Shown piece after piece: positions 1 to 14,440 of a stretch of DNA of 14,440 nucleotides. This stretch comes from a virus (lineage: Duplodnaviria; Heunggongvirae; Uroviricota; Caudoviricetes), in the IMG/VR virus record IMGVR_UViG_2939147180_000003; one strand, written 5' to 3'. A program made the translations under genes and the position numbers. Position 1 is the first letter of the stretch; each line of letters starts with the position of its first letter. A model generated the notes under the pieces. The model was given only the letters and a program-made list of their open reading frames with translations, was not told where the DNA came from and searched no databases.

Positions 1-798
1 TTAATGAACATTCGTCGCCGAAAACGAGTCTGTATCATTAGTGCGATGCAGTCTCTGCAAAGGATCTTGTTGATAAAATTGGCAGAAACGTTGCCACAAT
101 GAAGGGAAACGAGGAGCAAAAAGTTCTGGGGCGCTAAAGAAATATTCAGAAAGTACGGCAAAACATTCAGCAGGATCACTGGCAGCATAAGCATCAATGC
201 TCGCCGCATTCTCGCCAACCAATTCGATTTCTTCCTGAATGTTGTTCATTGCAGCATGAAGATCGTGTTCCCAGCCAGCAACCTCACGCAACGGAATAAA
301 GGGAACTCCGCTGGCGCGATCGCCGTTACGGGTGTCCAGCTTATGAGCGACTTCATGAATAATCAGGTTAAAACCAGAAGCATCAAAAGAATCTTGTATA
401 TCCAACCAGTTCAAAACGATAGGCCCTTGCTGCCAGCTCTGACCTGACTGAACAATACGTTGGTTATGCACCAGACCGATATCGTCTTCCCATTCATCAT
501 CGACCACAAATGGCGCAGGATAAATTAAGACTTCATGAAAACCATCCAGCCATTCCAGTCCTAACTCCAGAACGGGTAGGCAAAATAGAAGTGCTATCCG
601 GCAGCTTCTTAATGAATCCAGTTCAAAGCCCTGTAAAGGAACAAGCCGCTTTTGCTGTAAAAAACGTTCGGCAAGAGTGACTAATTTGCTTTGTTCCTGT
701 TCCGTCAGACCCGTTAAAAGGGGGATCGATAGTGCTTCCTGCCAGGGAAGGGCAGTTTGATGTGCTGATTCTTGTACTTTCCAGGGCCACTTAATCAT
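1..798 (-). CDS. mtfA: MtfA (Mlc titration factor A, Zn-dependent peptidase fold)
   Basis: ORF 1..837 (-); conserved N-terminus MIKWPWK places the start at 798; HEVAH zinc-binding motif; full-length resemblance to enterobacterial MtfA from memory; stop codon at 1-3. Confidence 0.9.
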
Positions 799-891
799 CG
801 TTTTGCTCGCAAACTCGTCACTTGAACAAAATTGCACGGACAGGGACTGTTAAAATGCCAAATTTCCTGGCATCATGGCAACCATCTGAAC

Positions 892-981
892 GGAGAGATG
901 CCGGAGCGGCTGAACGGACCGGTCTCGAAAACCGGAGTAGGGGCAACTCTACCGGGGGTTCAAATCCCCCTCTCTCCGCCA
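892..981 (+). tRNA. serU: tRNA-Ser (anticodon CGA)
   Basis: 90-nt sequence GGAGAGATGCCGGAGCGGCTGAACGG...CTCTCTCCGCCA: 7-bp acceptor stem GGAGAGA/TCTCTCC, anticodon stem CCGGT/ACCGG with loop CTCGAAA (anticodon CGA), long variable arm typical of Ser, T-arm GGGGGTTCAAATCCCCC, 3' CCA encoded. Matches enterobacterial serU from memory. Confidence 0.9.
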
Positions 982-1027
982 CTATTCAAACACTTACAGC
1001 ATTCCCTTTCAGTGACCTGCATCCCGA

Positions 1028-1061
1028 TGAGAAAAATTGAGAAAATCCACTGAGAAAAATT
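1028..1061. repeat. Tandem TGAGAAAA(A)T motifs between tRNA and int; candidate integrase arm-type sites
   Basis: TGAGAAAAATT at 1028-1038 and 1051-1061 (identical), variant TGAGAAAATCC at 1038-1048; lies between the tRNA 3' end and the int stop, where P'-arm sites of tRNA-targeting integrases usually sit. Function is inferred. Confidence 0.3.
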
Positions 1062-1093
1062 CTAGCGCCGAAGCATGCTCCGACGCCAAAGAA

Positions 1094-2071
1094 TCATCTC
1101 ATTTTCTTGTTCAACGTGGGGCTGATTTTAACTTTCCTGTCGTAAACAAGTACCTGTGATTCTGTCTTATGACCACTGAATTTTTGCTTATCCCTGCCAG
1201 ATCCTTCATAGTCTGAGATCCCTTTAGCCTTTAGATCATGGAAGGTGCAATCAAGTGGCCTACCAAGTTCTTCAGAAGCCGCGTTTCTCGCTTTTCTCCA
1301 TGCTTCATTAAATCCCTTGTATGAATAACGCTCACCATACATTGTCCTGATAACAGGGCCATCCTGTCCCCATTCCCTGCAAATATCCACAGCCGCACTA
1401 AGACGCTCAGTCCAGGCTTTGATCTGTTTAATACCAGTTTTACCTTGCTGTATGAAAATTCCTTTATCAAGAATCTGATTCCAGTTCATTTTAAGAACAT
1501 CAGATACCCTTGCAGCGCAAAGATACGCAATTTCCATCGCGGCTTTAACTGCAGGTGTCGCATGAGTGAAGATAGCTATGTACTCTTCATCAGTTATGTA
1601 GCGGTCGCGCTGGGGTTTAGGAAACTTATCGACACCAACACACGGATTACCTGGTACATAACCACGCTGATAACCCCAGCGGTATACACGAGACATTGAA
1701 CTATGCTCGTGATTAGCCTGAACACGGCTTCTTTTACCACGTGCATCCATGTAGCGTCGGACGTGTTCTGGTTTAATGGCCTTTGCTTCTGCATCGCCGA
1801 AAACCGCTAACAAGTATTTTTCATGTGCCAGGTAATCTTTTTGTGTCCTGGGGGCAAGGTCTGCATAGTCAGCACTATTTAAAAATTTTTTCCACAATTG
1901 TTGAAAGGTGAGTAGTTTTTTTCGACCTTCAACGACTTTCTCGTAAGCTAACCAAACCTCCGCTTTAGAAGCGTTTGCTGGGGCTAGATTCTCGGTAGTA
2001 CCTCCTGGCTTCCAGTAGTAACCGGAAGGGCGGAAAAACACACCCTTCGGCATCCACTCATTCAGCATCAA
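1094..2071 (-). CDS. int: Phage integrase, tyrosine recombinase (lambda Int family)
   Basis: ORF 1094..2071 (-); first codon at 2071 is TTG, first ATG at 2068. Alignable to lambda Int catalytic region: CAARVSD (Arg I), QQGKTGIK (Lys), TFHDLKAKG (HxLR box but with Lys), SGHKTESQVLVYDRK (His, Tyr nucleophile). Adjacent to the tRNA 3' end. Confidence 0.9.
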   Translation of the reverse strand: MMLNEWMPKGVFFRPSGYYWKPGGTTENLAPANASKAEVWLAYEKVVEGRKKLLTFQQLWKKFLNSADYADLAPRTQKDYLAHEKYLLAVFGDAEAKAIKPEHVRRYMDARGKRSRVQANHEHSSMSRVYRWGYQRGYVPGNPCVGVDKFPKPQRDRYITDEEYIAIFTHATPAVKAAMEIAYLCAARVSDVLKMNWNQILDKGIFIQQGKTGIKQIKAWTERLSAAVDICREWGQDGPVIRTMYGERYSYKGFNEAWRKARNAASEELGRPLDCTFHDLKAKGISDYEGSGRDKQKFSGHKTESQVLVYDRKVKISPTLNKKMR

Positions 2072-2216
2072 TCACATCTTGGGATACAGACGCTTGGATA
2101 ATATCTGCTTCGCTATAGTCGCCCCGCATAACCAGAAAACGAGCCTCATCGGAGCAGAGGTAATCAACTGCCCCATCAAATTTCCCCTTGCTGGTTGGTT
2201 TGGTTACGTTGCTCAT
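2058..2216 (-). CDS. Small acidic hypothetical protein (52 aa), translationally coupled upstream of int
   Basis: MSNVTKPTSKGKFDGAVDYLCSDEARFLVMRGDYSEADIIQASVSQDVIDAE; ATG at 2216 overlaps the stop of the preceding ORF (ATGA), and its 3' end overlaps the int start. Occupies the usual excisionase position but is acidic, unlike typical basic Xis proteins. Confidence 0.4.
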   Translation of the reverse strand: MSNVTKPTSKGKFDGAVDYLCSDEARFLVMRGDYSEADIIQASVSQDVIDAE

Positions 2217-2347
2217 GCTGTCCACCATTCAATAAACATGCAGATACCAACGGTTACTACGGCAATCAGCACCCAGCAGATCACATCTAACAGGGCGGCG
2301 AGCCGACGCAGGGTGTATTTGCTGTAATTCTCAGGTTCAAAATTCAT
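2213..2347 (-). CDS. Small hydrophobic protein (44 aa, one predicted TM helix)
   Basis: MNFEPENYSKYTLRRLAALLDVICWVLIAVVTVGICMFIEWWTA; start ATG (2347) overlaps the ParB-like stop (ATGA), stop overlaps the next start (ATGA). Below the 60-aa cutoff of the ORF track; supported only by the coupling geometry. Confidence 0.4.
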   Translation of the reverse strand: MNFEPENYSKYTLRRLAALLDVICWVLIAVVTVGICMFIEWWTA

Positions 2348-3129
2348 TGCGCCTCCCCAAGCACCCAGCGCAGAGCCTCGGCATATTCGCCACTGGCATC
2401 TTCGAGTGCTTTTGTAATTTCTTTGCGGGTTTTCAGGCGCGGCTTTGCATCACCGAGGATCTGACGCTGACGCCGAGCTTTTTCATGGCCCGTGGTGCCG
2501 GCGGTCGCTGTCTCGATCTGCTTGACCTTCTCCCGTTGCTCTTCGGGTTTAAGCGATGCCAACTGACGCGCCTGGGTAACAGTGACCGTTCCGGACTCCA
2601 CTGCATCGCGAACAGCTTGGGTGGCATCCAGCAGTGACAGAGTTGCGCGTACGGTCTGGACACTCACGCCAAACATCAGCGCTAAATCATCCTCATCGTG
2701 CCCGCGCTCCAGCGCATCAGCCATTTTCTTTGCTCGGCCTAGCGGCGTATCTGCCTGGCGGATTTCGTTAGCACTTACCATCGCCTGCGCCATGCGAATG
2801 GCAGAGCCACGTTTAGGGACTCCCGGAACCAGTAACGGTTCTTTGCCCAATTTTGACAGACGCTTATTGGCTTCCAGTGTATGGCGCACACGCTGGCGAC
2901 CATCAACCACACAAGACAGCCCTGTTTCCGGGTCTTTCCAGACGATAATCGGCTCAAGAACGCCCTGGTCCATGATGTTCAGCACCATTGCCTCGCTGAT
3001 AGGCAGGTGGATACGCTCATCGTAAAGCGGGTGCGTTTTGTCGGTAACCAGGTGCAGTTTTTCAGGTTCAAACGCTAAAACGTTCGTTTTGCCACTCGCG
3101 CCATATACCAGCTTTGAGTCTTTAGCCAT
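2344..3129 (-). CDS. ParB/Spo0J-family protein (ParB N-terminal nuclease-like domain plus HTH)
   Basis: 261 aa; ParB-box-like motif VVDGRQRVRH, followed by an HTH-like segment LALMFGVSVQTVRATLSLL and a charged C-terminal region; ATG 3129 overlaps the upstream stop (ATGA). No parA partner in the window. Confidence 0.75.
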   Translation of the reverse strand: MAKDSKLVYGASGKTNVLAFEPEKLHLVTDKTHPLYDERIHLPISEAMVLNIMDQGVLEPIIVWKDPETGLSCVVDGRQRVRHTLEANKRLSKLGKEPLLVPGVPKRGSAIRMAQAMVSANEIRQADTPLGRAKKMADALERGHDEDDLALMFGVSVQTVRATLSLLDATQAVRDAVESGTVTVTQARQLASLKPEEQREKVKQIETATAGTTGHEKARRQRQILGDAKPRLKTRKEITKALEDASGEYAEALRWVLGEAQ

Positions 3130-3428
3130 CAGAGAGCCTCCACGTTACGGAAGCTGGTGGGGCAAATTGCCTTCAAATCGCGCATAGCCTCTAGAACATG
3201 CATATTTGTGCGATTCTTGGTGTGTCGCTCGGTCAGGCGATCACACTCTTTCGCCCATGATTTGACCTCTGCAAGAAGGGCGTCACGTTCGGTGCGCGTC
3301 TGGCGCAGAGCTACATTCGAAACATCGAGGACGGTAGCCAGTTCCTTGATGATTGCTGCCTGTTCTGGTGGCATAGTTTTGGCTATTTCGTACGCCTGTT
3401 TAATCAGTTGTTTTGCTGTCTTAGCCAT
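3129..3428 (-). CDS. Hypothetical protein (99 aa), first gene of the leftward early operon
   Basis: Track ORF 3129..3479 trimmed to ATG at 3428 (MAKTAKQLIKQ...) preceded by GGAGA 7 nt upstream; stop overlaps the ParB-like start. Confidence 0.6.
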   Translation of the reverse strand: MAKTAKQLIKQAYEIAKTMPPEQAAIIKELATVLDVSNVALRQTRTERDALLAEVKSWAKECDRLTERHTKNRTNMHVLEAMRDLKAICPTSFRNVEAL

Positions 3429-3724
3429 CTTTTGTTCTCCATCTGACGCTCTGCAACGCGTAAATTTAGGGTGCAGCAACCCAACCCATGAGAATGGGTG
3501 AATAGCTGGTTAAAATTTCTTGCTGATGGGGGACCGCCACTGCAATGGCGGTACGTTAGTTCTCCACACAACACAGAAGAGCACCTGCGGCCGCAAATCC
3601 GCTCGGGCGGATTGTGTTAGGGCACGTCACTCGGTGGTGCTCTGATGTCTTTTGTAAAAGGGCGAACCAGAAACAATGGGGAAACTGGTGCCGCCAAGAT
3701 GACATAGTCCATCAGACTCACTTG

Positions 3725-3768
3725 ATGTTAGGTTATGCCTAATGTCATGTCAATAGGCTTAGCCTAAT
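3725..3768 (-). promoter_or_regulatory. PL-like leftward promoter overlapped by two operator palindromes (OL-like)
   Basis: On the minus strand TTGACA (3753..3748), 17-nt spacer, TAACAT (3730..3725). Operator-like 17-mers GTTAGGT-TAT-GCCTAAT (3727-3743) and AATAGGC-TTA-GCCTAAT (3752-3768), centres 25 bp apart, related to the perfect palindrome at 5776-5792. Confidence 0.5.
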
Positions 3769-3782
3769 GTTGGTCGGCGGTC

Positions 3783-3806
3783 AAAAAAAATCCCGCATAA
3801 GCGGGA
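3783..3806 (-). terminator. Intrinsic terminator-like hairpin (reads as hairpin plus U-tract on the minus strand)
   Basis: Stem TCCCGC (3791-3796) / GCGGGA (3801-3806), loop ATAA, flanked by A8 at 3783-3790 (T8 on the minus strand). Sits between the IS5 left end and the PL-like promoter. Confidence 0.5.
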
Positions 3807-3826
3807 TTTGTGTGAAATAAAGCTAG

Positions 3827-5021
<1,195 letters not shown>

Positions 5022-5247
5022 CTAACATTTTTAACATGTTCAATGTGATTTTTAAGACGTACTTTGAAGTTTTCCATGCATCCTCCATGCAAAGTGAAAA
5101 CCTGCTGTTAAATCAAAGCAAGTCACAATCCCGGATAGGCTTCATACAAGCCAATCCCCCACAGGGATTGAGTTATGCAAGCGAATCAATCTCAGAGCTT
5201 TTAACATGTATGGAGCTTAGAGATATTGTCCGTTAGACCATATAAGC

Positions 5248-5724
5248 TTAAGCTCTGGCTTTCGTTTGTTTTTTTCCATCTTCCTCCTGCTCTGCCCATC
5301 TCCTTATCTTCATCTCTAATGAGTCTAAATATGCTTTAGCATCGCTATCTACCCAGCCAGGTATACGCTGTCCTTGCTCTAAGAGGACAAAATCAATGAT
5401 AGCCTTTTTTTCTCTCGAAGCCTTATTATAGAGCTCGTCAATAGAACCATTTTTAACTATGGGATCTGTTGCGGGCTCACATGTATCAGTTAGCGGGTAT
5501 CCCTTTAGTCCCCAGTGCTCGGGGCCCACAACATCAGAAAAGTAGTTCCAAAGCTCTGGTAGCTTCTCTTTCGATATGGAGCCTTTATTGATCCAGTCAT
5601 GGATTGATGGGGGTTTTATTTTGAAATGACGTGCGATTTCCGCCTTACTCTTGGCAGAACCTATTGAAAGCTTCTTGTCTATGGCCTGCTCGATCGCTCG
5701 GCCCAATTCTTTACCACTAAGCAT
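5248..5724 (-). CDS. Prophage repressor, HTH (Cro/C1-type) with non-peptidase C-terminal domain (RacR-like architecture)
   Basis: 158 aa; N-terminal HTH (SKAEIARHFKIKPPSIHDWINKG); no GDSM / Ser-Lys S24 motifs in the C-terminal half; divergent from a cro-like gene across an operator cluster; GAGGA upstream of ATG 5724. Confidence 0.7.
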   Translation of the reverse strand: MLSGKELGRAIEQAIDKKLSIGSAKSKAEIARHFKIKPPSIHDWINKGSISKEKLPELWNYFSDVVGPEHWGLKGYPLTDTCEPATDPIVKNGSIDELYNKASREKKAIIDFVLLEQGQRIPGWVDSDAKAYLDSLEMKIRRWAEQEEDGKKQTKARA

Positions 5725-5793
5725 TGCCTAATAATCCTCATAACCTATAGCTTAGGCAATTCCTATTGGTTGTTTATTAGGCTTAGCCTAATA
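5716..5793. promoter_or_regulatory. Divergent immunity control region: three operator-like palindromes and a PR-like promoter
   Basis: Perfect 7-3-7 palindrome ATTAGGC-TTA-GCCTAAT at 5776-5792; degenerate copies at about 5751-5767 (CTTAGGC-AAT-TCCTATT) and 5716-5732 (ACTAAGC-ATT-GCCTAAT, overlapping the repressor start). Plus-strand TTGGTT (5765-5770), 17 nt, TAATAT (5788-5793). Confidence 0.55.
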
Positions 5794-5825
5794 TCTGCTT
5801 GTGTGGAAATCATAGGAATCCGTTT

Positions 5826-6089
5826 ATGAGAAGTAGCCTTGAAGCAATCAGTGAAGCCTGCCGCATTGTTGGGGGACAAGCCGCTTTGTCAAGGAATCTA
5901 GGCATCTCATCACCAACAGTGAATCAATGGACAACGGGCATTAGGCAAATACCTGCGGAACGATGTCCTGCGATTGAGAAAGCTACTGGTGGTGCTGTCA
6001 CCTGCGAAGAGCTTCGTCCTGACATTGACTGGGCCTATTTAAGAGGTGCAGCAATGCGAAAGCTTAATGTCACTGCATCAAATTTGTAA
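5826..6089 (+). CDS. Cro/YdaS-like HTH regulator
   Basis: Track ORF 5799..6089 trimmed to ATG 5826 with AGGAA upstream; MRSSLEAISEACRIVGGQAALSRNLGISSPTVNQWTTGIRQIPAERCPAIEKATGG... resembles the YdaS/Cro family of the Rac prophage from memory. Confidence 0.75.
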   Translation: MRSSLEAISEACRIVGGQAALSRNLGISSPTVNQWTTGIRQIPAERCPAIEKATGGAVTCEELRPDIDWAYLRGAAMRKLNVTASNL

Positions 6090-6117
6090 CTACCACCCGA
6101 GTTTGAAAGGAGTAGGT

Positions 6118-6570
6118 ATGAACCTCAAAGAAGTCGTGAAATCTATGTGCAAAGCATATCCAGGTGGGCGCGAAGCAATGGCTGGCGCACTGGGAATGAC
6201 GGTGACGCAGTTTAACAACAACCTTTACGAGAAAAACGGCTGTCGTTTCTTCGAAGTCAGCGAACTGGAAGCGATGGAGGACATCTCGAATACATCTCAC
6301 CTGGCTGAATATTTTGCCCGCCGTCGTGGTGCTCTGCTGGTGGATGTTCCGCACCTGGAAGAACTGGACCGCGTGGACTTGTTTAGCCGGGCAATGCGTA
6401 CCTCTGCCGCCAGGGGGCAGGTTGATCAGATTATCGAACAGGCGCTTGAAGATGGCGTTATTGAAAGGCACGAGGCCGAAGAAATCATGGTGCATCACCG
6501 CCGTCACCTGGCAGCTCGTGAAGAAGAGATTGCCGCAATCATCACGCTTTTTTCACGCAAAAAGAAGTGA
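6118..6570 (+). CDS. YdaT/CII-like regulatory protein
   Basis: Track ORF 6046..6570 trimmed to ATG 6118 preceded by AAGGAG (gaaaggagtaggtATG); position immediately after cro-like gene as in Rac racR-ydaS-ydaT. Family assignment is by position and recalled similarity only. Confidence 0.55.
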   Translation: MNLKEVVKSMCKAYPGGREAMAGALGMTVTQFNNNLYEKNGCRFFEVSELEAMEDISNTSHLAEYFARRRGALLVDVPHLEELDRVDLFSRAMRTSAARGQVDQIIEQALEDGVIERHEAEEIMVHHRRHLAAREEEIAAIITLFSRKKK

Positions 6571-6597
6571 CGCCAGCGAGTTGCAGCTCCTGGCGTC

Positions 6598-7437
6598 GTG
6601 GCGTGTCGTTATCAGTGGAGATTACTAACGCATGAACAGTTTATCAACACAATACCGCAGGTCGCAACTTGTAGCGCGGCCAGTTCCTGGTGGAGCAGGG
6701 CCGGTGCAGTTCGTGTAGAGCCATTCGTTGGTGGTGGGTCGGTATTCCTGAACAGCGAAAAGCACGCAGATTACCTGCTGGCGGACGTTAACCCGGACCT
6801 GATTAATCTGTATCAGATGTTAGCGGTCGTGCCGGATGAAGTGGAATTGAAGGCCCGCTGGATGTTCGAGCACATGCGGTCACCAGAGCGCTATGAGCTG
6901 ATCCGTTCCGAGTTCAACTCTCAGACGCTGGATGCTACTGAACGCGCAGCTGCATTCCTGTATCTCAACCGGCATTGCTTCAATGGTCTGATGCGCTACA
7001 ACCAGGCGAACAAGTTCAATGTGGGCTGGGGAGGCTACAAGGCTCCGTATTACCCGATGGATGAGATGAAAGCCTTCGCGGCTATGGCGCATAACTGCGT
7101 ATTCATGACGGCTGATTACCGCCGGACAATCAGCCTGGCCGGGAAAGGGGATGTGGTTTACTGCGATCCGCCTTACGAACCGATGCCGGGAACAACCGGA
7201 TTCACCGCCTACGCCGCTGGTGGTTTTAACTGGGAGAACCAGGTAGACCTGGCGAAGCAATGCGTATCAGCCTTTCACCGTGGGGCTCGGGTAGTGATTT
7301 CTAACTCATCTGCACCGAAGGTTCTCGACCTGTACCGGGAGCATGGTTTTAACCTGCAATTCATCAACGCGCGCCGTTCGATCTCCTGCAAAAGCAGTAC
7401 GCGGGAAGTCGCAAAAGACGTTGTAGCGATCCTTTAA
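6598..7437 (+). CDS. dam: DNA adenine (N6) methyltransferase, Dam family
   Basis: VEPFVGGGSVF (SAM motif I) and CDPPYEP (DPPY catalytic motif); alignable along its length to E. coli Dam from memory. Only in-frame start is GTG at 6598 with no good SD; same frame as the upstream gene, separated by a single TGA. Confidence 0.8.
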   Translation: MACRYQWRLLTHEQFINTIPQVATCSAASSWWSRAGAVRVEPFVGGGSVFLNSEKHADYLLADVNPDLINLYQMLAVVPDEVELKARWMFEHMRSPERYELIRSEFNSQTLDATERAAAFLYLNRHCFNGLMRYNQANKFNVGWGGYKAPYYPMDEMKAFAAMAHNCVFMTADYRRTISLAGKGDVVYCDPPYEPMPGTTGFTAYAAGGFNWENQVDLAKQCVSAFHRGARVVISNSSAPKVLDLYREHGFNLQFINARRSISCKSSTREVAKDVVAIL

Positions 7438-7446
7438 GGGGGCTAA

Positions 7447-8289
7447 ATGAAACTGACTTTACCATTTCCACCGAGCGTAAATAGTTACTGGCGCGCCCCG
7501 AGCAAGGGACCGCTGAAAGGCAGGCATCTGGTAAGCGAGACAGGGCGCAAGTTCCAGCAGGCAGCGAGAGCGGCGATTATTGAGCAACTGCGGGCCGTTC
7601 CCCGGCCATCCTCAGATCTGGCCGAGGTTCACATAAACGTTGTTGAGGGCGCGGGGCTTGAGCTTGATCCTGATGATGATTCACAGGTTCTTAAAGCGAT
7701 TGGTGGCGGTCGCCTGCTTAATATTGTCACCTTTACTAAGTCAGGGACTTACACTCCAACTAAAGGGACGAAAAGAGTGCGGGTGAAAGTTTGGGGAGCG
7801 GGGGGAGGTGGCCAGAATGCTCCAGTTAGTGTGGGCGCATCTGGAGGTTGTGCTGGTGGATTTTCGGAAGGGTTATTTAATATTTCTGATAACGAAACTA
7901 TATCTGTGACGATAGGTACTGGTGGCAGTGCTGTTGCTGCTGGTGTCTCGTCTAAAGGCGGGAATGGTGGTGATACAAGGTTCGGGAGTTTAATCTCAGC
8001 TACTGGAGGGAGTGGTGGCGGGGCTACAGTTCCTGCTGGAGGTATCGGAAGTGGCGGGAACATTTTAAATATTACTGGCGGAATATCTCAAGGTGGTCTG
8101 TATTATGGTTCTGATGCTTTTATTGGCGGGGCTGGAGGATCTGCATTTTCATCAACGGGTGGCAATGGCCACTTCGGTAGTTCTGGCGATGATGGCGGTT
8201 TCCCCGGCTCAGGTGGTGCCGGGGGGAATGGTAACTATTCATCAGGAAAAGGAGCGAATGGTTTAGTTTACCTTGAAGAGTTTTCCTGA
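7447..8289 (+). CDS. Chimeric ORF: RusA-like Holliday-junction resolvase N-terminal region fused to a glycine-rich tail-fibre-type C-terminal domain
   Basis: aa 1-96 RusA-like (LPFPPSVNSYWR, DPDDDSQV, GGGRLLNIVTF); aa 111-280 Gly-rich repeats (VKVWGAGGGG ... GANGLVYLEEFS). Synonymous codon usage shifts from G/C-ending to A/T-ending near nt 7720-7780. ATG 7447 with AAGGGGG upstream. Confidence 0.65.
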   Translation: MKLTLPFPPSVNSYWRAPSKGPLKGRHLVSETGRKFQQAARAAIIEQLRAVPRPSSDLAEVHINVVEGAGLELDPDDDSQVLKAIGGGRLLNIVTFTKSGTYTPTKGTKRVRVKVWGAGGGGQNAPVSVGASGGCAGGFSEGLFNISDNETISVTIGTGGSAVAAGVSSKGGNGGDTRFGSLISATGGSGGGATVPAGGIGSGGNILNITGGISQGGLYYGSDAFIGGAGGSAFSSTGGNGHFGSSGDDGGFPGSGGAGGNGNYSSGKGANGLVYLEEFS

Positions 8290-9359
8290 TTATTTTTGCT
8301 TTGAGCGTCCGCCCTTATTTTTGCTCTAATTTTAATTAGTGGCTTGTCTATTAATATTACACAAACGATCCCAAGTGCAATTGATATTGGGTAGCCTAAT
8401 AAAAAGATGGATAAGCCACGATTTTCACCACCAATAGCAAGCCATGCTAGAAATCCACCAAAATATTGACAAAGAAAAATTGGATAGGCCAGGTCACCAA
8501 ACCACTTGAGTATTTTCTCAAGATGTATGTTTGTCTTTATTTTTAATAATACCAGGGTTGTAAACAATGCTATTACATTATTGGTGTAGTAAAGTATTAT
8601 GTTGTACTGACCTAATGGATTAATTGTATATAAATGCCAATTGGTAATAAAAATCCCGATGCAAATAAATGTTATTAAAAAAGCTTTGTGTGGAGAAAGA
8701 TACATAGCTTTGAACTTTCTATGGGCAAAATAACCCAGAGAACCCATGCTAAAAGGAAGTGTTGCAGCAAGGAATGGGAAATACGCCATATCAAAAGAAT
8801 GGTGTACTACATATACGTAAGCATGATAAAGCAGTGAAAGCAGAATCGACGTAATGGCTGTAAATTTATTTCGGGCTATGAAAAGCCACAATAAAAAATA
8901 ACATGTTATCTCAACACCCACTGACCATGATGATGTGACTATTCTGAATCTATTACCATCAATAGCAAAGTGATAAATGGATGAAAAGGCACCGAATGGA
9001 TTTGCTACAGCATTATCAGAAAGGAAAGCCCAGGGGAAGATTAAGAGGTTTCCTAATAAATCTCCAGGTAAGAAATTGCCTGTCCAGTTTGAGTGGAATT
9101 CCTTTGCGGATGGAATTAATTTTATAATAAGAAAGCCCATGACGAGAAAAAATATATATGCCGGGAATAACCTCAGTATTCTATTTTTCCAAAACATAGA
9201 GAAGTTGAACTTGTATGTTTCATGCAAAATGTATGTTATTAAAAAACCACTAATAACATAGAAGCAATTCACTGCAAAGTTGCCAAGTGCAGGTATGCGA
9301 GCCGTTAAGTGAAAAGCAATGACGCACGATGCCAAAAAAAACCTTATTAGGCCAAGCAT
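8268..9359 (-). CDS. Acyltransferase family 3 integral membrane protein (O-antigen / polysaccharide O-acetyltransferase-like)
   Basis: 363 aa, about 10 hydrophobic segments, AT-rich coding sequence; resembles phage Oac/OafA-type acyltransferases. Start ATG 9359 overlaps the stop of the upstream small ORF; 3' end overlaps the convergent 7447..8289 ORF by 22 bp. Confidence 0.8.
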   Translation of the reverse strand: MLGLIRFFLASCVIAFHLTARIPALGNFAVNCFYVISGFLITYILHETYKFNFSMFWKNRILRLFPAYIFFLVMGFLIIKLIPSAKEFHSNWTGNFLPGDLLGNLLIFPWAFLSDNAVANPFGAFSSIYHFAIDGNRFRIVTSSWSVGVEITCYFLLWLFIARNKFTAITSILLSLLYHAYVYVVHHSFDMAYFPFLAATLPFSMGSLGYFAHRKFKAMYLSPHKAFLITFICIGIFITNWHLYTINPLGQYNIILYYTNNVIALFTTLVLLKIKTNIHLEKILKWFGDLAYPIFLCQYFGGFLAWLAIGGENRGLSIFLLGYPISIALGIVCVILIDKPLIKIRAKIRADAQSKNNQENSSR

Positions 9360-9622
9360 TATTTTATCTCCGCGCCAATATCGCGCATTTTATTTATTAC
9401 ATTGTTAAGTTGCTCATCAGACAGAACAAGCTGAGCTGCAATATAAAACAGTATGTGTCTTGACATTACCCTGGGGCTCTCTCCGCCAGTGTATTTCCGC
9501 CATTGGCTATCGCTGGCTACACCTGCGAGCCCTGCCATTTGGTTTCCGGAGTAATTTAGTGCGGATTTCAGTCTGGCTAAATCTTCCTGCGTTGGAGGGG
9601 TGTATTTATTTATTAAAATCAT
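9359..9622 (-). CDS. Small XRE-like HTH protein upstream of the acyltransferase
   Basis: Track ORF 9359..9646 trimmed to ATG 9622; segment YSGNQMAGLAGVASDSQWRKYTGGESPRVMS fits an HTH_3-type pattern; stop/start overlap with the acyltransferase gene (TAATG). Confidence 0.45.
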   Translation of the reverse strand: MILINKYTPPTQEDLARLKSALNYSGNQMAGLAGVASDSQWRKYTGGESPRVMSRHILFYIAAQLVLSDEQLNNVINKMRDIGAEIK

Positions 9623-9723
9623 TCTCTTATTTAACCGTTTAAACACGTAAGGCGATGTTAGCCCTGAAGGGGCGGGGCGTCAATCTTAATTGCTTCATTG
9701 AAAAGATGAAGACAGGAACAGGT

Positions 9724-11718
9724 ATGGACAAAAGATATAATACCGGCAATCCAAGACCTTCAAATAGCATGAAGGATCTGAATGATAACGCCCTGGCGTA
9801 CGATGATTTCCTGAACAGCGAAAGCGATACTTTTATAGATCGTTTTGGTAACGCCCAGGATACGATAATTGGGGCTACTAAAAAAATGGCAGCTGCTACC
9901 GACGCTGTTATTGATGAAGCCCGCCAAAACCTGATCCCTCTCAGCCGGCAGTACATGACGCTGGCGGCGGCGCAGGCGGATATTGCGAATATTCCGGCAG
10001 GTTCAACAACCTATGTCCGCAGTCAGGACGGAAGCTCTCTGGCCGATGAGTATATCAACCTCGCTGGAACGCTGCAGCCAACCGGACGGCGGATGGTTCG
10101 TGACGACTACGCATACCAGGTATCGCCAGACAGCGTGACCCTGGCAGCATATGATCCGGAGACTTCCCGCGTGGCTCCATTTTTAAATACAAGCGGCAGA
10201 TTAATTCAAATCGGTCCTGACGGAAAATATTACGAACTTTTAACCCAACAAGAATCCGAACTCTATGCGCTGGGCCGGGAGGGTTCTATACCGCAGTTTA
10301 TTGGCGGTGAAAAAGTGTGGCGGATGACGGTTGATTCAACCACAAACCAGATCGTTGAAGCTTATACGGTTGGTGGGAAGCACTGGATTTACTCAGACGG
10401 TGGCCTGGTAGCTGTTAATAACGGAAATGGCGGTGGTGGTGGCGACGATGATGCCAACCAGCTCCCTGAGTATGGACTTCATTTGTCAGGGTCTACTGTG
10501 TACCCCTACTCAGAGACAGTGCCTGTATGTTTTATCTTTGTGACTGCTGGGCAATCCAACGCTCGAGGATATTGTCCTGACGCCGATCAAACCATTGTCG
10601 CAGCAACGCCGATATATCCTGATAACGCTTTCATGCTCAGCGGCGGGGTTAGGCGTACAGGGACACGCAGCACTACTCTGGTGCCACTGGTTGAGGCAGT
10701 AAGTGGGACAGATAAAGAAACGGCCGCAAGCGGCCTCGCGAACACCTTCATTCGCGATATGGCTGCAGCTACCGGAATCATGCCGCGCACGCTATCAATC
10801 GTATGTGCGCAGTCTGGTCAGGCTTACGAGTACCAGAAACGGGGTAACCAGGTATATCAGTATCTGCTCGATTCAATCGAAGACTGCGTAACGGCCTGTA
10901 AAGCACGCGGCTGGCTGCCGATTGTTCTCTGCGTTGACTGGATGCAGGGAGAGTCCGACGAGGACTGGTCAGGATTACGAGAAGGAATGTATGAATCACG
11001 GATGAGGCAGTACCAGAGACAAATCACCAGCGACATCATCGCAAGAACGGGTCAAAACGAACCGCCGATTATCGCCATTACCCAGCTGGGGTATGTCAAT
11101 GACGGGCATGGTGCATTTACAGGCCAGTACGCGCGACTGGCGTCGACGCGATTGCACGGAAAAGAGCAATTCAGGCTGGTCAATAGTTTGTACCAGTACG
11201 ATTTTATTTCAGACGGTCTGCACTTGACGTGTGCGGGCCAGAACCGGCGCGGAGCAGCTGTGGCGAGAGCGCTTCTCCAGGAGTGGTTTACGAGCGGCTG
11301 GTCAGGGATGGTTCCGACCAGTTTCGTGTGGAACTCACCCACGCAGATACAAATCAATGTCCCAGCGTATACGAACCTGGTGCTGGACACGACTACGATC
11401 AACACCTCCGGTCTGGCCAATTACGGCTTTAGCTACACGGATGAGACTGGTGCTCCACCTGCTATATCGAGCATCGCGATCAGCTCGGACGGCAAGGGCG
11501 TGCTGATTAACCTGGCGACCGCCCCCTCTGGACGTTTTGGGCGCGTTTCCTATGCGACAGCAGAAAACCCACTTCAGAGCGGCGCATCTGTAAAACCTTC
11601 CGGGCGGACTCTTGGTGCAAGAGGGTGTGTTCGATCTTCCGCTGGAATCATATGGGTGTATGACACATCCGTGACTCTTTACGACTGGCTCCCCGCTTTT
11701 CGTATTAACGTTTTCTGA
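9724..11718 (+). CDS. Tail-fibre/tailspike-like protein with central SGNH-type (sialate O-acetylesterase-like) hydrolase domain
   Basis: Track ORF 9655..11718; likely start ATG 9724 (AGGAACAGGT upstream). GQSN block at aa 276-279 (nt 10549-10560, FIFVTAGQSNARG) and DGLH block at aa 497-500 (nt 11212-11223); Gly-rich linker NNGNGGGGGDDD before the esterase domain. Tail-fibre role inferred from context. Confidence 0.7.
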   Translation: MDKRYNTGNPRPSNSMKDLNDNALAYDDFLNSESDTFIDRFGNAQDTIIGATKKMAAATDAVIDEARQNLIPLSRQYMTLAAAQADIANIPAGSTTYVRSQDGSSLADEYINLAGTLQPTGRRMVRDDYAYQVSPDSVTLAAYDPETSRVAPFLNTSGRLIQIGPDGKYYELLTQQESELYALGREGSIPQFIGGEKVWRMTVDSTTNQIVEAYTVGGKHWIYSDGGLVAVNNGNGGGGGDDDANQLPEYGLHLSGSTVYPYSETVPVCFIFVTAGQSNARGYCPDADQTIVAATPIYPDNAFMLSGGVRRTGTRSTTLVPLVEAVSGTDKETAASGLANTFIRDMAAATGIMPRTLSIVCAQSGQAYEYQKRGNQVYQYLLDSIEDCVTACKARGWLPIVLCVDWMQGESDEDWSGLREGMYESRMRQYQRQITSDIIARTGQNEPPIIAITQLGYVNDGHGAFTGQYARLASTRLHGKEQFRLVNSLYQYDFISDGLHLTCAGQNRRGAAVARALLQEWFTSGWSGMVPTSFVWNSPTQIQINVPAYTNLVLDTTTINTSGLANYGFSYTDETGAPPAISSIAISSDGKGVLINLATAPSGRFGRVSYATAENPLQSGASVKPSGRTLGARGCVRSSAGIIWVYDTSVTLYDWLPAFRINVF

Positions 11719-11727
11719 GGATAAAAA

Positions 11728-12528
11728 ATGAGACTGATTTACACACTAACTGGACTGAATAACCCCTTACTCCCTGTGTACTCACAAACAGCGGCAGAGA
11801 AAGCGATCTCAGAACTATCCCCATCAGTATGGACACCAGTGAAGACAGAGTTTCTAAAAATGGGGTCTGGTGCAAAAGTAGTAGCTATCTCTAACCGATT
11901 AGATGGCGGACTTTTCAAGTCACTGGAGACCCTCGAGCCATCCACAAAGCTGAATGGTTCTGTTTTGCAGGGGCTTAATTTCTCCGGTGCATCCGGCATG
12001 GCTGGTGATACGGCGGTGGTTATGGACGCAAACATCAATACTTTTGCATTCATCTATCAGCTGCCAGGTGGGGCGCTTCCGGCTACGCCACAGGACAGAG
12101 CGGTTATCGCAACCCAGGAAAGCACACCTCATGGCGTCGGCATTCGTACAACGTCAGCAGGTTCATTCCCGATTTTTCTGAATGGAGGGATCGAGGCCGA
12201 TCTGGCATTTACTCCTAACAATATAGGGCAATCTTTATTCTGCGCTGTAGTTATGTGCTCTAACAAGGCTGCTGGATCCTATGCAATTGCATACCAGCGG
12301 TCAGATCAGTCTGCAGTGACCAGCCGACAAGTGACGGGCTATACAATCCCAGCGTATAGCCCGTCTCAAAAAATGAGTATTGGCGGAGCAGGCAATGGTT
12401 CAGTGTCTCCGTTAACATCCGTTTTGTCAGAATGTTTGGTTTTCCCCGGCAAATATGCATATGGGACCAGCACACTGGATGTCATCCTGGCATATCTGAT
12501 GGAGAGGATTGGAAAAATCACGGCCTAG
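11728..12528 (+). CDS. Hypothetical protein (266 aa) co-transcribed with the esterase tail-fibre gene
   Basis: GAGGA 7 nt upstream of ATG 11728, 10 bp after the upstream stop; no family motif recognised. Position is analogous to tail-fibre assembly or distal fibre genes. Confidence 0.55.
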   Translation: MRLIYTLTGLNNPLLPVYSQTAAEKAISELSPSVWTPVKTEFLKMGSGAKVVAISNRLDGGLFKSLETLEPSTKLNGSVLQGLNFSGASGMAGDTAVVMDANINTFAFIYQLPGGALPATPQDRAVIATQESTPHGVGIRTTSAGSFPIFLNGGIEADLAFTPNNIGQSLFCAVVMCSNKAAGSYAIAYQRSDQSAVTSRQVTGYTIPAYSPSQKMSIGGAGNGSVSPLTSVLSECLVFPGKYAYGTSTLDVILAYLMERIGKITA

Positions 12529-12721
12529 AATTTGCCGAATGCATCCGAGTCGGTCCGCAGCGATGGAGCAGGAGAGAGTCGGCGGCCGCCGCCGGATAAT
12601 GACTGAAGAAGTGGTGGAGCGGTGCCGCAGAATGCTGGAGAACGGCGCTACCCGGCAGCAGGTGGCTGATGTGACAGGCGTGGACGTGAAAACAATCTAC
12701 AAGTACCTCCCGGCGACTTGA
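12509..12721 (+). pseudogene. Remnant of a Hin/Gin/Pin-type serine DNA invertase (C-terminal HTH fragment only)
   Basis: AAMEQERVGGRRRIMTEEVVERCRRMLENGATRQQVADVTGVDVKTIYKYLPAT resembles the invertase C-terminus (GRIGGRRPKLT ... RQQ.A...GV..T.Y+Y.PA) with an apparent internal deletion; the resolvase catalytic domain is absent. Confidence 0.5.
12662..12717 (+). repeat. Direct repeat copy 1 (invertase 3' end, about 55 bp)
   Basis: TGGCTGATGTGACAGGCGTGGACGTGAAAACAATCTACAAGTACCTCCC; related copies at 13241-13292 and 13449-13505. Confidence 0.6.
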
Positions 12722-12798
12722 AGGCAAAGATTTCACTACTTTTCCTGATATGTTACGTTTGGCTTAATCAATTCATTCAGCTTTGAAAACAGTTTGGT

Positions 12799-13221
12799 TT
12801 GTTCGTGAACGGTAAGAAAACAATAAGTTTTGAGCAATTTTTAACTATTAACAGCAATCTTGTTTCCATCTCAGATACATGGGCTGACTTGTGGGCGTTA
12901 ATTTTTCACACGGGTTTAAGCGCTGGAAGGCTGCTGAGTATTCGATATGATGATATTGATGGTGACTTGATACTGATACGAAAACAGGGTCACCTGAAGG
13001 AGCTACGTGTTAAATCAACCCCTCCAGTGGAGGGGATCATTGCTCGTAGAAGAGAACGCTATCCAGAAGATGTTTTTTTATTTCAGAGCCATTCTAACCG
13101 TGTGAAGTACCAATGCCGGCCGGTCACTATAATTGCTTTCAACGCCGCTTTACGTCGCGCCGCTAGATCATTACCAGACGTTAACGTAAGCAGTAGTAGC
13201 GCGAGAAACATACCGGACTAA
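12799..13221 (+). pseudogene. Tyrosine-recombinase-like fragment (FimB/FimE-like core, truncated at both ends)
   Basis: No ATG anywhere in frame (TTG/GTG only); ALIFHTGLSAGRLLSIRYDDIDGDLILIRKQG resembles the box-I region of small tyrosine recombinases; the HxLRH and Tyr-containing C-terminal region are missing. Followed in frame after one stop by a copy of the invertase-3' repeat. Confidence 0.35.
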
Positions 13222-13240
13222 CCGCCTGTCCAGTCGCGTG

Positions 13241-13292
13241 TGGCCGATGTGACAGGCGTGGGGGTGAAGACTATTTACAAATATTTGCCAGT
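13241..13292 (+). repeat. Direct repeat copy 2 (invertase 3' end)
   Basis: TGGCCGATGTGACAGGCGTGGGGGTGAAGACTATTTACAAATATTTGCC; high identity to copy 1 with scattered substitutions; encodes VADVTGVGVKTIYKYLP in the frame of the upstream recombinase-like ORF. Confidence 0.6.
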
Positions 13293-13304
13293 ACAATACG
13301 GCGA

Positions 13305-13338
13305 TAAAAACCCCCTTGAGCAGGCACACTCAAGGGGA
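13305..13338. terminator. Strong hairpin, terminator-like on the minus strand
   Basis: Perfect 9-bp stem CCCCTTGAG (13313-13321) / CTCAAGGGG (13330-13338), 8-nt loop; A-run 13307-13311 upstream gives a T-run after the hairpin on the minus strand; no U-tract on the plus strand. Confidence 0.3.
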
Positions 13339-13448
13339 AAATACTACATAACATCATTGCTGTGTGCGTCTTTGCGCTCGTCTATCTTCCAAGAATATGC
13401 CTAAAGCTTCCAGATATTTCTGGTCTGAGCTGTTACATCATGGAGTAG

Positions 13449-13505
13449 GTGCCGATGTGATAGGTTAAGAGCGAAGATGATCTGTAAGTACCTTCCGACG
13501 TCGAG
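13449..13505 (+). repeat. Direct repeat copy 3 (degenerate)
   Basis: GTGCCGATGTGATAGGTTAAGAGCGAAGATGATCTGTAAGTACCTTCCGACG; clearly lower identity than copy 2, with in-frame stops. Confidence 0.45.
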
Positions 13506-13841
13506 GGGCAATGACCATGAATTTGGGTCTATACCATCCCAATTCATATATTCTTTGTAAGTCTATGAAATATAGAGCAAAGTATTCTGTTCGAAATGAA
13601 CCATATGGAATAGCCAAAGGCTAAAATGCCCAGAGTAAAAACAACAATCAGCAAGTCCGTCTGTGACATCTTATATCCATTTTGCAGTAGCAGGTTTTGA
13701 GAAAAGATAGTTCATAGTTGGCACATAGACAACATAATCACTAAGTGAAACCAATATCAGAGGCTAAAAGGTGACTGGTTTCCTCCTCAGTGTTCCTGAT
13801 TGATAGCTGGAACCTGTATTGATCAGATCTCTTAATGAATC

Positions 13842-13861
13842 TACTGTATATAAAAACAGTA
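13842..13861. promoter_or_regulatory. LexA box (SOS operator)
   Basis: TACTGTATATAAAAACAGTA: CTGT-N8-ACAG with AT-rich spacer, full match to the LexA consensus and, as I recall, identical to the E. coli umuDC operator. Lies 18 nt upstream of ATG 13880, just before GGGAGGTG. Confidence 0.8.
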
Positions 13862-13879
13862 TTTTCGGGAGGTGAAGTT

Positions 13880-14038
13880 ATGCCGCGAAACTCAGATATC
13901 GAAATAGCCTGGCGTCAGGCAATTGTCATTGAGCCTAATGGCCGTCGCACCGTGACAACGTCCGGTTTTATCCGGGAACTCGCAAAAGTTAACTGGATAT
14001 GGTCACCGCGCCAGGCTAACCAGTGGATAGAGCACTGA
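13880..14038 (+). CDS. Small protein (52 aa) immediately downstream of the LexA box
   Basis: Track ORF 13835..14038 trimmed to ATG 13880 with GGGAGGTG 5 nt upstream; MPRNSDIEIAWRQAIVIEPNGRRTVTTSGFIRELAKVNWIWSPRQANQWIEH; no family recognised. Confidence 0.5.
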   Translation: MPRNSDIEIAWRQAIVIEPNGRRTVTTSGFIRELAKVNWIWSPRQANQWIEH

Positions 14039-14047
14039 CATTCCGGG

Positions 14048-14440
14048 ATGTCTCAACGCAGGAAGGCGATGAGCTCACGTTCCAGTTATACAACCCAAAC
14101 GGAGGGCTATAACGTGGGATTTCCGTCGCCAGCTGCTGACTATGTTGAACGGCGTCTGACCGTTGATTCACTCTGCGGTACCGGCCCCAATACTCGGATA
14201 GTACAAACAGAAACCGGCTATGCCGTAGTGGATTGCTTCGTAAAACCAAAGCAAGGAGATACCGTTTTAATTCAATACGGCGGCGGCACTGATTTTGCAA
14301 AAATTATGGGCCGGGCATTTATTACACGAGACGGTGAAGCGTTGGAAGGTGAGGCCCTGGATGATGTTACAGTTGTCGGGGTAGTGACATTCGTTATCAA
14401 TCGGATAGGGAAGGATGATGATGATTATCCAGTAATATGA
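14048..14440 (+). CDS. UmuD-like (peptidase S24 fold) protein, apparently lacking the Ser nucleophile motif
   Basis: GFPSPAADYVERR at aa 24-36 matches the UmuD region around the Cys24-Gly25 cleavage site; C-terminal DDVTVVGVVTFVINRI resembles the UmuD C-terminal strand; TGYAV occupies the place of SGDSM. Alternative start ATG 14069. Stop TGA is the last codon of the window and overlaps an ATG (ATATGA). Confidence 0.65.
   Translation: MSQRRKAMSSRSSYTTQTEGYNVGFPSPAADYVERRLTVDSLCGTGPNTRIVQTETGYAVVDCFVKPKQGDTVLIQYGGGTDFAKIMGRAFITRDGEALEGEALDDVTVVGVVTFVINRIGKDDDDYPVI

Follow-up and report, generated by a model that had tools for sequence, protein, structure and literature searches.

The 14,440 bp of DNA analysed here, hereafter the window, comes from the IMG/VR virus record IMGVR_UViG_2939147180_000003 (Caudoviricetes) and is 100% identical to part of the chromosome of Escherichia coli KMi012; five other complete genomes match it at 99.9–100% identity. 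An original prediction, made from the letters alone, had read it as a Rac-like cryptic lambdoid prophage remnant at the tRNA gene serU, with several functional blocks missing. The gene classes that it listed, namely integrase and early-left genes, an immunity region, dam and rusA-like genes, tail fibre-region genes and an invertase remnant, are all present at roughly the places where it put them. We conclude that the window very probably holds almost the whole of an ordinary cryptic prophage, a 13.8-kb remnant to which multiple deletions have reduced a temperate phage of ∼44 kb. Gene identities were taken from Pfam, NCBIfam and PHROG profile searches and from Prokaryotic Genome Annotation Pipeline (PGAP) and RefSeq annotation. 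The features are as follows (ORF, open reading frame; IS, insertion sequence).

1–798, minus strand: mtfA, a host flanking gene outside the element (RefSeq annotation of the identical KMi012 locus).
892–981, plus strand: serU, tRNA-Ser(CGA) (ARAGORN; Rfam).
920–983: attL core, the 64 bp of the serU 3′ end that recur exactly, in direct orientation, at attR (alignment and extension of the exact run).
1094–2062 (ORF to 2068, 325 aa), minus strand: int, a 5′-truncated tyrosine integrase gene (Pfam PF00589; alignments with the MIN9, KpF5 and lambda integrases).
2063–2228, minus strand: early-left gene fragment, positions 1–51 of the 102 in profile phrog_28696, cut by deletion 1 (PHROG).
2344–3129, minus strand: ParB/HTH_ParB-like early-left gene (Pfam PF17762; syntenic in MIN9 and KpF5).
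3129–3428, minus strand: 99-aa early-left phage gene, phrog_15091 (PHROG, 3e-63).
3827–5021, minus strand: IS5 (ISKpn26 family), 1195 bp with 16-bp terminal inverted repeats (transposase Pfam match; sequence; PCN061 alignment).
5248–5724, minus strand: intact RacR-type prophage repressor gene (NCBIfam equivalog NF049929, 254 bits against a cut-off of 200).
5826–6089, plus strand: YdaS/Cro-like HTH protein gene, divergent from racR (Pfam YdaS_toxin, 104 bits; P22_Cro).
6118–6570, plus strand: CII-like (CP76/YmfL family) regulator gene (Pfam PF06892; NCBIfam YmfL equivalog, 205 bits).
6643–7437, plus strand: chimeric Dam methylase gene, truncated at the N-terminus of the protein (KpF5 alignment; Pfam).
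7447–8289, plus strand: in-frame fusion ORF of 280 aa, rusA codons 1–63 followed by a glycine-rich tail-protein C-terminus (alignments; PHROG RusA and tail fibre; Pfam Gly_rich_2).
8268–9359, minus strand: Acyl_transf_3 membrane O-acetyltransferase gene, an intact moron (Pfam PF01757; PHROG O-acetyltransferase, O-antigen acetylase).
9359–9646, minus strand: 95-aa ORF, phrog_20491, upstream of the acyltransferase gene and co-directional with it (PHROG).
9724–11718, plus strand: modular tail fibre gene, 664 aa, with a C-terminal SASA-family carbohydrate O-acetylesterase domain (Pfam SASA, PF03629; PHROG 4201).
11728–12528, plus strand: 266-aa gene following the SASA fibre gene (synteny).
12557–12721, plus strand: C-terminal HTH_7 remnant of a serine DNA invertase, catalytic domain deleted (Pfam PF02796, 1.9e-9; PGAP pseudogene).
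12799–13221, plus strand: 140-aa ORF similar to the central part of the catalytic domain of tyrosine integrases (phrog_19751, 5e-46; phrog_1 integrase, 2e-8).
13835–14440, plus strand: right-end UmuD/pol V-like genes, a frameshifted fragment and a 130-aa UmuD-like ORF at 14048–14440 (PGAP; PHROG UmuD-like, 7e-49).

The integration target is serU, the sole tRNA gene found in the window (57 bits with the Rfam tRNA model); the Rfam scan returned nothing else there. As the original prediction expected, the right attachment site lies outside the window: a second copy of the serU 3′ end, matching attL exactly over all 64 bp, occupies the positions equivalent to 14711–14774, 271 nt past the window end. 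From the positions of the two repeats the element measures ∼13.8 kb, and all but its last 0.3 kb is inside the window. RefSeq annotation of 48 kb around the locus in KMi012 places a 137-nt ‘tRNA-OTHER’ after the element, then yodB-zinT-msrQP. Since the next gene beyond attR is the core gene yodB, no morphogenetic genes follow downstream of the window, where their discovery would have contradicted the idea of a remnant.

Comparison with strains lacking the insertion gave a consistent picture. The empty site, in which the left flank is joined to the sequence right of attR, is uninterrupted in 3855 of the 5426 complete E. coli genomes, and that of strain H3 is 100% identical to the reconstruction. 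The locus thus has the form of a defective prophage, an insertion between direct att repeats, at a position left uninterrupted in other strains. Moreover, in Klebsiella phage KpF5 an identical serU-derived core directly adjoins the 3′ end of int and constitutes attP. The remnant was found in nine of the 5426 genomes; besides KMi012 and the five others that match the window, three have the same element without IS5. Three database matches carried an extra 348 bp that was at first suspected to be an indel; this proved to be the attR copy joined to the main match. Known as an integration hot spot, serU is used as such by both pathogenicity islands and lambdoid prophages (PMC7067040, PMC7545054). 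None of the papers on serU insertions that we consulted describes this particular element; the kind of element is already known and is not novel. The surrounding region is rich in asn-tRNA genes and known island insertion sites, and outside the window the neighbouring yeeO and yeeJ genes are annotated as pseudogenes with internal stops (KMi012 locus 1756–3243 and 9435–16511).

Breakpoints within the element were resolved to the base by pairwise DNA alignment with MIN9, KpF5, HS and PCN061. Gene homology and synteny link the element to complete phages and prophages, namely KpF5, MIN9, ST16-OXA48phi5.2 and the ECCTRSRTH03 prophage. The most extensive guide is MIN9, which has a 43.5-kb prophage between the same att cores. 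Its genes run in the order int, a xis-like DUF4224 gene, ea genes, the ParB-like gene, cI/cro/YmfL, DUF4222, a replication HTH gene, dam, rusA, DUF968 and DUF1133, the last occupying the place annotated as antiterminator Q in KpF5. Next come holin, lysozyme, a lysis protein (in the Rz position), terminase, gpW, portal, S49 protease, decoration protein and major capsid genes, then sheath, tube, baseplate J, YmfQ, fibre and assembly genes and a different moron pair; the right end shares with the window the invertase remnant, the 140-aa ORF and the pol V-like gene. The two elements therefore share the att site, the integrase, the int-to-rusA region and the right end, but MIN9 differs in having a LexA-type cI and different fibre and moron genes (HAD hydrolase, GT-A glycosyltransferase). 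The MIN9 prophage is itself decaying, with internal stops in rusA, lysozyme and gp46 and an IS1 fragment near its right end.

The early region of the window is 93–95% identical at the nucleotide level to Klebsiella temperate phages, among them KpF5, ST101-KPC2phi6.3, P7641 and the Kp48xx series, and its Int protein is 99% identical in amino acid sequence to that of KpF5. At this level of identity the element documents a recent transfer of phage from Klebsiella to E. coli. KpF5 has, besides the serU-derived core by int, counterparts of int, the ParB-like gene, the phrog_15091 gene, the repressor of RacR type, the CII-like gene, dam and rusA, together with a DUF450 gene considered below. It differs in being complete: its 38-kb genome includes Q, lysis and terminase genes, an O-like gene for replication and tail genes of siphovirus type, all of which are missing from the window, whose right arm is of myovirus type.

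Could two unrelated elements then lie in tandem at serU, a Klebsiella-type lambdoid fragment (int to rusA′) on the left and an acyltransferase/esterase/recombinase island on the right? The best match of the left arm, KpF5, is siphovirus-type with a tape-measure gene, while the right arm matches myovirus-type prophages and holds remnants of two more recombinases. Nevertheless, we regard this arrangement as highly improbable. There is a single attL/attR pair with no internal copy of the serU core; MIN9, one continuous prophage with the same att cores, has this early region, a contractile-tail module and the same right-end genes in a single piece; and at the rusA′/tail-gene junction the window shows a clean in-frame joint produced by deletion instead of an att junction.

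A second derivative of what appears to be the same prophage is found in the sister strain HS. This strain has a different remnant at serU, whose int fragment matches the 3′ end of the window int over ∼583 nt with one mismatch and then diverges, and whose right arm is 99.9% identical to window 7640–14440. In contrast to the window, HS has kept the terminase-to-decoration and baseplate–YmfQ genes and lost the entire early region. Because the losses differ, we take the two to be independent deletion derivatives of one ancestral prophage. The MtfA, YodB and ZinT proteins of HS and the window lineage are identical.

At the left end, deletion 1 has its junction at 2062/2063. Alignments with MIN9 and KpF5 show that native int codons 1–8 (MGRKRAPG) are gone and that the reading frame now abuts the N-terminal half of the phrog_28696 gene; the xis (DUF4224) and ea genes, which in the relatives lie between this early-left gene and int, are gone from the window. 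A 44-aa ORF lies on the minus strand between the phrog_28696 fragment and the ParB-like gene. The integrase had also been thought damaged by a lysine in its active site. The substitution is real: the HxxR box reads HDLK, in the context FHDLKAKGISDYEGS, and its Lys (K281 of the 325-aa ORF) aligns with R311 of lambda Int in PDB chains; the R, K, H, H and Y residues align with the lambda Int catalytic residues, and Arg II is replaced by Lys. It is no sign of decay, however. All 24 homologues compared, down to 55% identity, carry this Lys. They come from prophages of Klebsiella, E. coli, Citrobacter, Dickeya, Pectobacterium, Sodalis and Hamiltonella and include that of the isolated phage KpF5, so that the residue is a signature of the subfamily rather than a lesion. 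On these alignments the true lesion of the integrase is its 5′ truncation together with the loss of xis, and with both defects excision is probably no longer efficient. A tyrosine recombinase with an HxxK box that evidently still integrates at serU may merit biochemical attention.

Deletion 2 is bound up with IS5. IS5 is 1195 bp long and has 16-bp terminal inverted repeats, a DDE_Tnp_1 transposase and a YTAR target; the element at 3827–5021, with the ends GGAAGGTGCGAATAAG and CTTGTTCGCACCTTCC, agrees in length, inverted repeats, transposase and target. The original prediction was right about its presence, but this is not a simple insertion. The flanks, CTAG (3823–3826) and CTAA (5022–5025), both fit YTAR but differ from each other, so that the identical 4-bp target duplication of a simple insertion is lacking. 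In PCN061 the points that flank IS5 are separated by 1.87 kb, within which lie IS1 and a DUF450 ‘type I restriction endonuclease’-like gene. Unequal flanks and 1.87 kb of missing sequence associate IS5 with a deletion, and the arrangement indicates either an IS-associated deletion or recombination between two copies. The DUF450 gene lies directly downstream of racR on the same strand in PCN061 (locus 5447–7269) and follows the RacR gene in KpF5 too, a position typical of prophage-encoded defence or exclusion genes. The PCN061 gene is disrupted by IS1 instead of being lost with IS5.

Deletion 3, at 6717/6718, has a TA microhomology at its junction and joins the sequence after the CII-like gene to dam at about codon 25. 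Alignment with KpF5 shows that it took a small ORF, the O-like replication gene and approximately the first 24 dam codons. Consistent with this, the D12 methylase Pfam match begins at position 23 of the 253-position profile; the N-terminal motif region is thus missing, and the protein annotated as ‘DNA adenine methylase’ is a chimera. Deletion 4 also lies at a TA microhomology, at about 7634–7636, where rusA codon 63 (the rusA fragment is 7447–7636) is fused to approximately codon 44 of a glycine-rich tail protein. A three-way alignment with the MIN9 rusA and the HS tail gene assigns the C-terminal ∼217 aa of the tail protein to the rest of the fusion ORF. Relative to MIN9, some 25 kb was lost here, comprising Q-like, lysis, terminase, head, sheath/tube and baseplate genes. 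The fusion ORF stands downstream of the truncated dam in a rightward operon, and PGAP annotates only its rusA part, as a pseudogene.

With these four breakpoints mapped against fuller relatives, the central claim of the original prediction, a cryptic lambdoid remnant at serU, stands. Its list of missing functions is also borne out, in that Pfam, PHROG and NCBIfam searches of the window found no replication, Q, lysis, terminase, capsid or tail-shaft genes; such an element would be unable to replicate, lyse the cell or build particles. The att repeats and the mapped junctions show an origin by integration at serU followed by deletions. In the course of events that we propose, an ancestor that combined a lambda-like head with a lambdoid early region and a contractile, baseplate-bearing tail of Mu/e14 type would have integrated into the 3′ end of serU by tyrosine-integrase recombination. 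Illegitimate deletions would then have taken out four blocks; in two cases the junction lies at a 2-bp (TA) microhomology. The first would have comprised the start codon region of int, xis and the ea genes; the second, lost through the IS5-associated deletion, the DUF450 gene downstream of the repressor; the third, the 5′ part of dam together with the O-like replication gene; and the fourth, the ∼25 kb from rusA to the first tail fibre-region gene.

A different origin could be imagined for an element of this size. At ∼14 kb it falls within the range of phage satellites, and an integrase beside a tRNA att site, a divergent repressor/Cro pair and a lack of structural genes are all compatible with a purpose-built island like the phage-inducible chromosomal islands, in which integrase, master repressor and cargo serve to hijack a helper phage. 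Yet every module boundary here is a truncated gene with a mapped junction (int′, dam′, rusA′::tail-protein′), the element carries orphan tail fibre genes, and HS has a different deletion of the same ancestor. Furthermore, Pfam and PHROG revealed neither a primase nor any other replication gene, no gene for packaging or capsid redirection, and none for an activator of alpA type. A satellite is accordingly barely conceivable, and descent by deletion from a complete temperate phage is much to be preferred.

Several points nevertheless weigh against this descent, or against parts of it. None of the genomes examined holds the exact unrearranged ancestor; the LexA-type cI of MIN9, in place of RacR, makes that prophage a relative and not the parent, and different references served for the two arms. 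Lambdoid mosaicism could mimic some of the ‘deletions’, for example that in the early-left region. Immunity, acetylation and failure of excision are all deduced from gene content. Finally, int retains the remainder of its frame and all the catalytic-box residues of its family, and both att cores are present, so that rare Xis-independent excision is possible.

In the right arm left by deletion 4, the tail-protein C-terminus is followed by the acyltransferase moron, which is of low GC content (34–38%) and is present as a cassette in 31 of the 5426 complete E. coli genomes. By its family matches, its product, plausibly still active, is a candidate for acetylation of the O-antigen or another surface polysaccharide, and hence for lysogenic conversion. 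Beyond it lies the tail fibre gene, which PGAP names ‘sialate O-acetylesterase’. This name, and a SASA esterase domain encoded by a prophage, are shared with NanS-p of the Shiga toxin (Stx) phages, and we considered whether the protein might be a NanS-p. Here, however, the SASA domain forms the C-terminus of a fibre whose anchor is common to many Klebsiella and E. coli prophage fibres, and in gene order the fibre follows baseplate genes instead of lying downstream of stx or Q. The match to PHROG 4201, ‘tail fiber protein’, covers its full length. In tblastn searches the fibre matched Vibrio and Acinetobacter phage tail fibres, among others, and Klebsiella prophage proteins encoded after baseplate J, and no Stx phage appeared among the matches listed or in the organism and host tallies of 70 phage records at E ≤ 1e-5. 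No other Pfam domain, DUF1737 included, was found in it. Over its N-terminal 124 residues (from M24, window 9724) it shares 93% identity with the fibre of the intact prophage in ECCTRSRTH03; the C-terminus of that fibre is a GDSL/SGNH esterase unrelated to the SASA domain. PHROG, synteny and the modular N-terminus thus exclude NanS-p and identify a tail fibre.

The 266-aa protein encoded next to the fibre gave no match in Pfam, NCBIfam or PHROG. Its gene always accompanies the SASA fibre, as in Klebsiella phage ST16-OXA48phi5.2, and beside the GDSL fibre an unrelated 249-aa protein takes its place. That the neighbour is exchanged together with the fibre type suggests a fibre-specific partner, and the protein may be a fibre partner or chaperone. 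The invertase remnant that follows is also present in HS and MIN9. A search for crossover sites yielded at best the inverted repeat 8241–8258/12732–12749 (18 nt, 89% complementary), which is about what chance provides in 6 kb and has one arm 3′ of the remnant. The 140-aa ORF is likewise kept in HS and MIN9, and the phrog_19751 profile that it matches is itself 140 positions long, so that it may be a recurrent small ORF and not a random fragment. The UmuD-like genes, for which NCBIfam HumD/UmuD matches are partial and below the cut-off, are the last before attR. Together with the recombinase fragments and the UmuD-like gene, the esterase fibre and its 266-aa partner are, we infer, passengers left stranded.

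In two prophage lineages the acyltransferase cassette (98.5% nucleotide identity) lies directly upstream of a fibre with an esterase domain, SASA in the window (8268–11718) and HS, GDSL in ECCTRSRTH03 (locus 19979–23210). The pairing may be coincidence. It is at best an outside chance that the acyltransferase and the adjacent esterase fibre form a co-adapted ‘writer/eraser’ pair acting on O-acetyl groups of a surface-polysaccharide receptor. If they do, the lysogen would acetylate the receptor and exclude other phages, its own phage could strip the acetyl group with the fibre, and the pair in this remnant would be a fossil of that system.

In the immunity region, the RacR-type switch is plausibly still active; it would repress the rightward Cro/CII operon and provide immunity to homoimmune KpF5-like phages. 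By analogy with Rac, loss of the repressor may be penalised. A promoter consensus scan returned 11 promoter-like sites against 19.7 expected from shuffled sequence, and a terminator scan 21 sites against 14.1 ± 4.4; the former is not above chance and the latter not clearly so. Among these hits are weak hints of sites upstream of racR and of the 95-aa/acyltransferase gene pair, and of a terminator after int.

The original prediction went further and called the remnant domesticated, which has not been demonstrated. According to this idea, selection maintains the RacR/YdaS switch, as an immunity or addiction module, together with the O-acetyltransferase, and the rest decays. It draws support from the intact state of the racR, ydaS-like, CII-like and acyltransferase ORFs among truncated neighbours, and from the fact that the window lineage and HS, whose deletions are independent, have each retained the right arm with the acyltransferase. 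Both the element and the acyltransferase cassette are rare, however, in the counts given above, and the orphan fibre and recombinase fragments, non-functional passengers, have been kept equally well. Carriers share flank alleles (the MtfA, YodB and ZinT proteins), consistent with clonal inheritance; moreover, all copies are at least 98.5% identical, and such near-identical copies give no power to detect purifying selection, so that selection cannot be assessed from them. Domestication therefore seems doubtful to us, and an ordinary cryptic prophage in decay accounts better for what the window contains.

The element is of little importance alone, since E. coli genomes commonly carry cryptic prophage remnants at tRNA genes. 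It does provide a tidy worked example in which every breakpoint is mapped and a sister strain, HS, has an independent deletion of the same ancestor. It also corrects two annotation traps, namely the integrase Lys, which is a family signature, and the ‘sialate O-acetylesterase’, which is a tail fibre and not NanS-p.

The description of the element as Rac-like holds in one respect. Like Rac, it has a RacR equivalog repressor with a divergent YdaS-like partner in the position of Cro. The third immunity gene, for which CII or YdaT had been offered, belongs to the CII/CP76/YmfL family and is not YdaT; and the integration site, the integrase and all other genes are not those of Rac. Rac cargo includes recET, kilR, sieB and trkG, among others. 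No RecET-type or other Rac cargo appeared among the Pfam, NCBIfam and PHROG matches in the window, in searches by family and not for each gene individually. The closest nucleotide relatives are Klebsiella phages and not K-12 prophages. The serU site, the lack of Rac-type cargo among the family matches and the DNA matches to Klebsiella phages together exclude a true Rac prophage. The K-12 integration sites of both e14 and Rac are different from serU. In its general nature, nevertheless, the element closely resembles the cryptic prophages of K-12 (e14, Rac, DLP12 and Qin), which are likewise deletion remnants of lambdoid phages. As in these, an integrase beside its att site and an immunity region are kept, the morphogenetic genes are mostly lost, IS elements have entered, and tail fibre and invertase leftovers remain at the far end. 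The resemblance to e14 extends to the level of gene families, through the YmfL-family CII-like gene of the window and the baseplate J and YmfQ genes of its fuller relatives.

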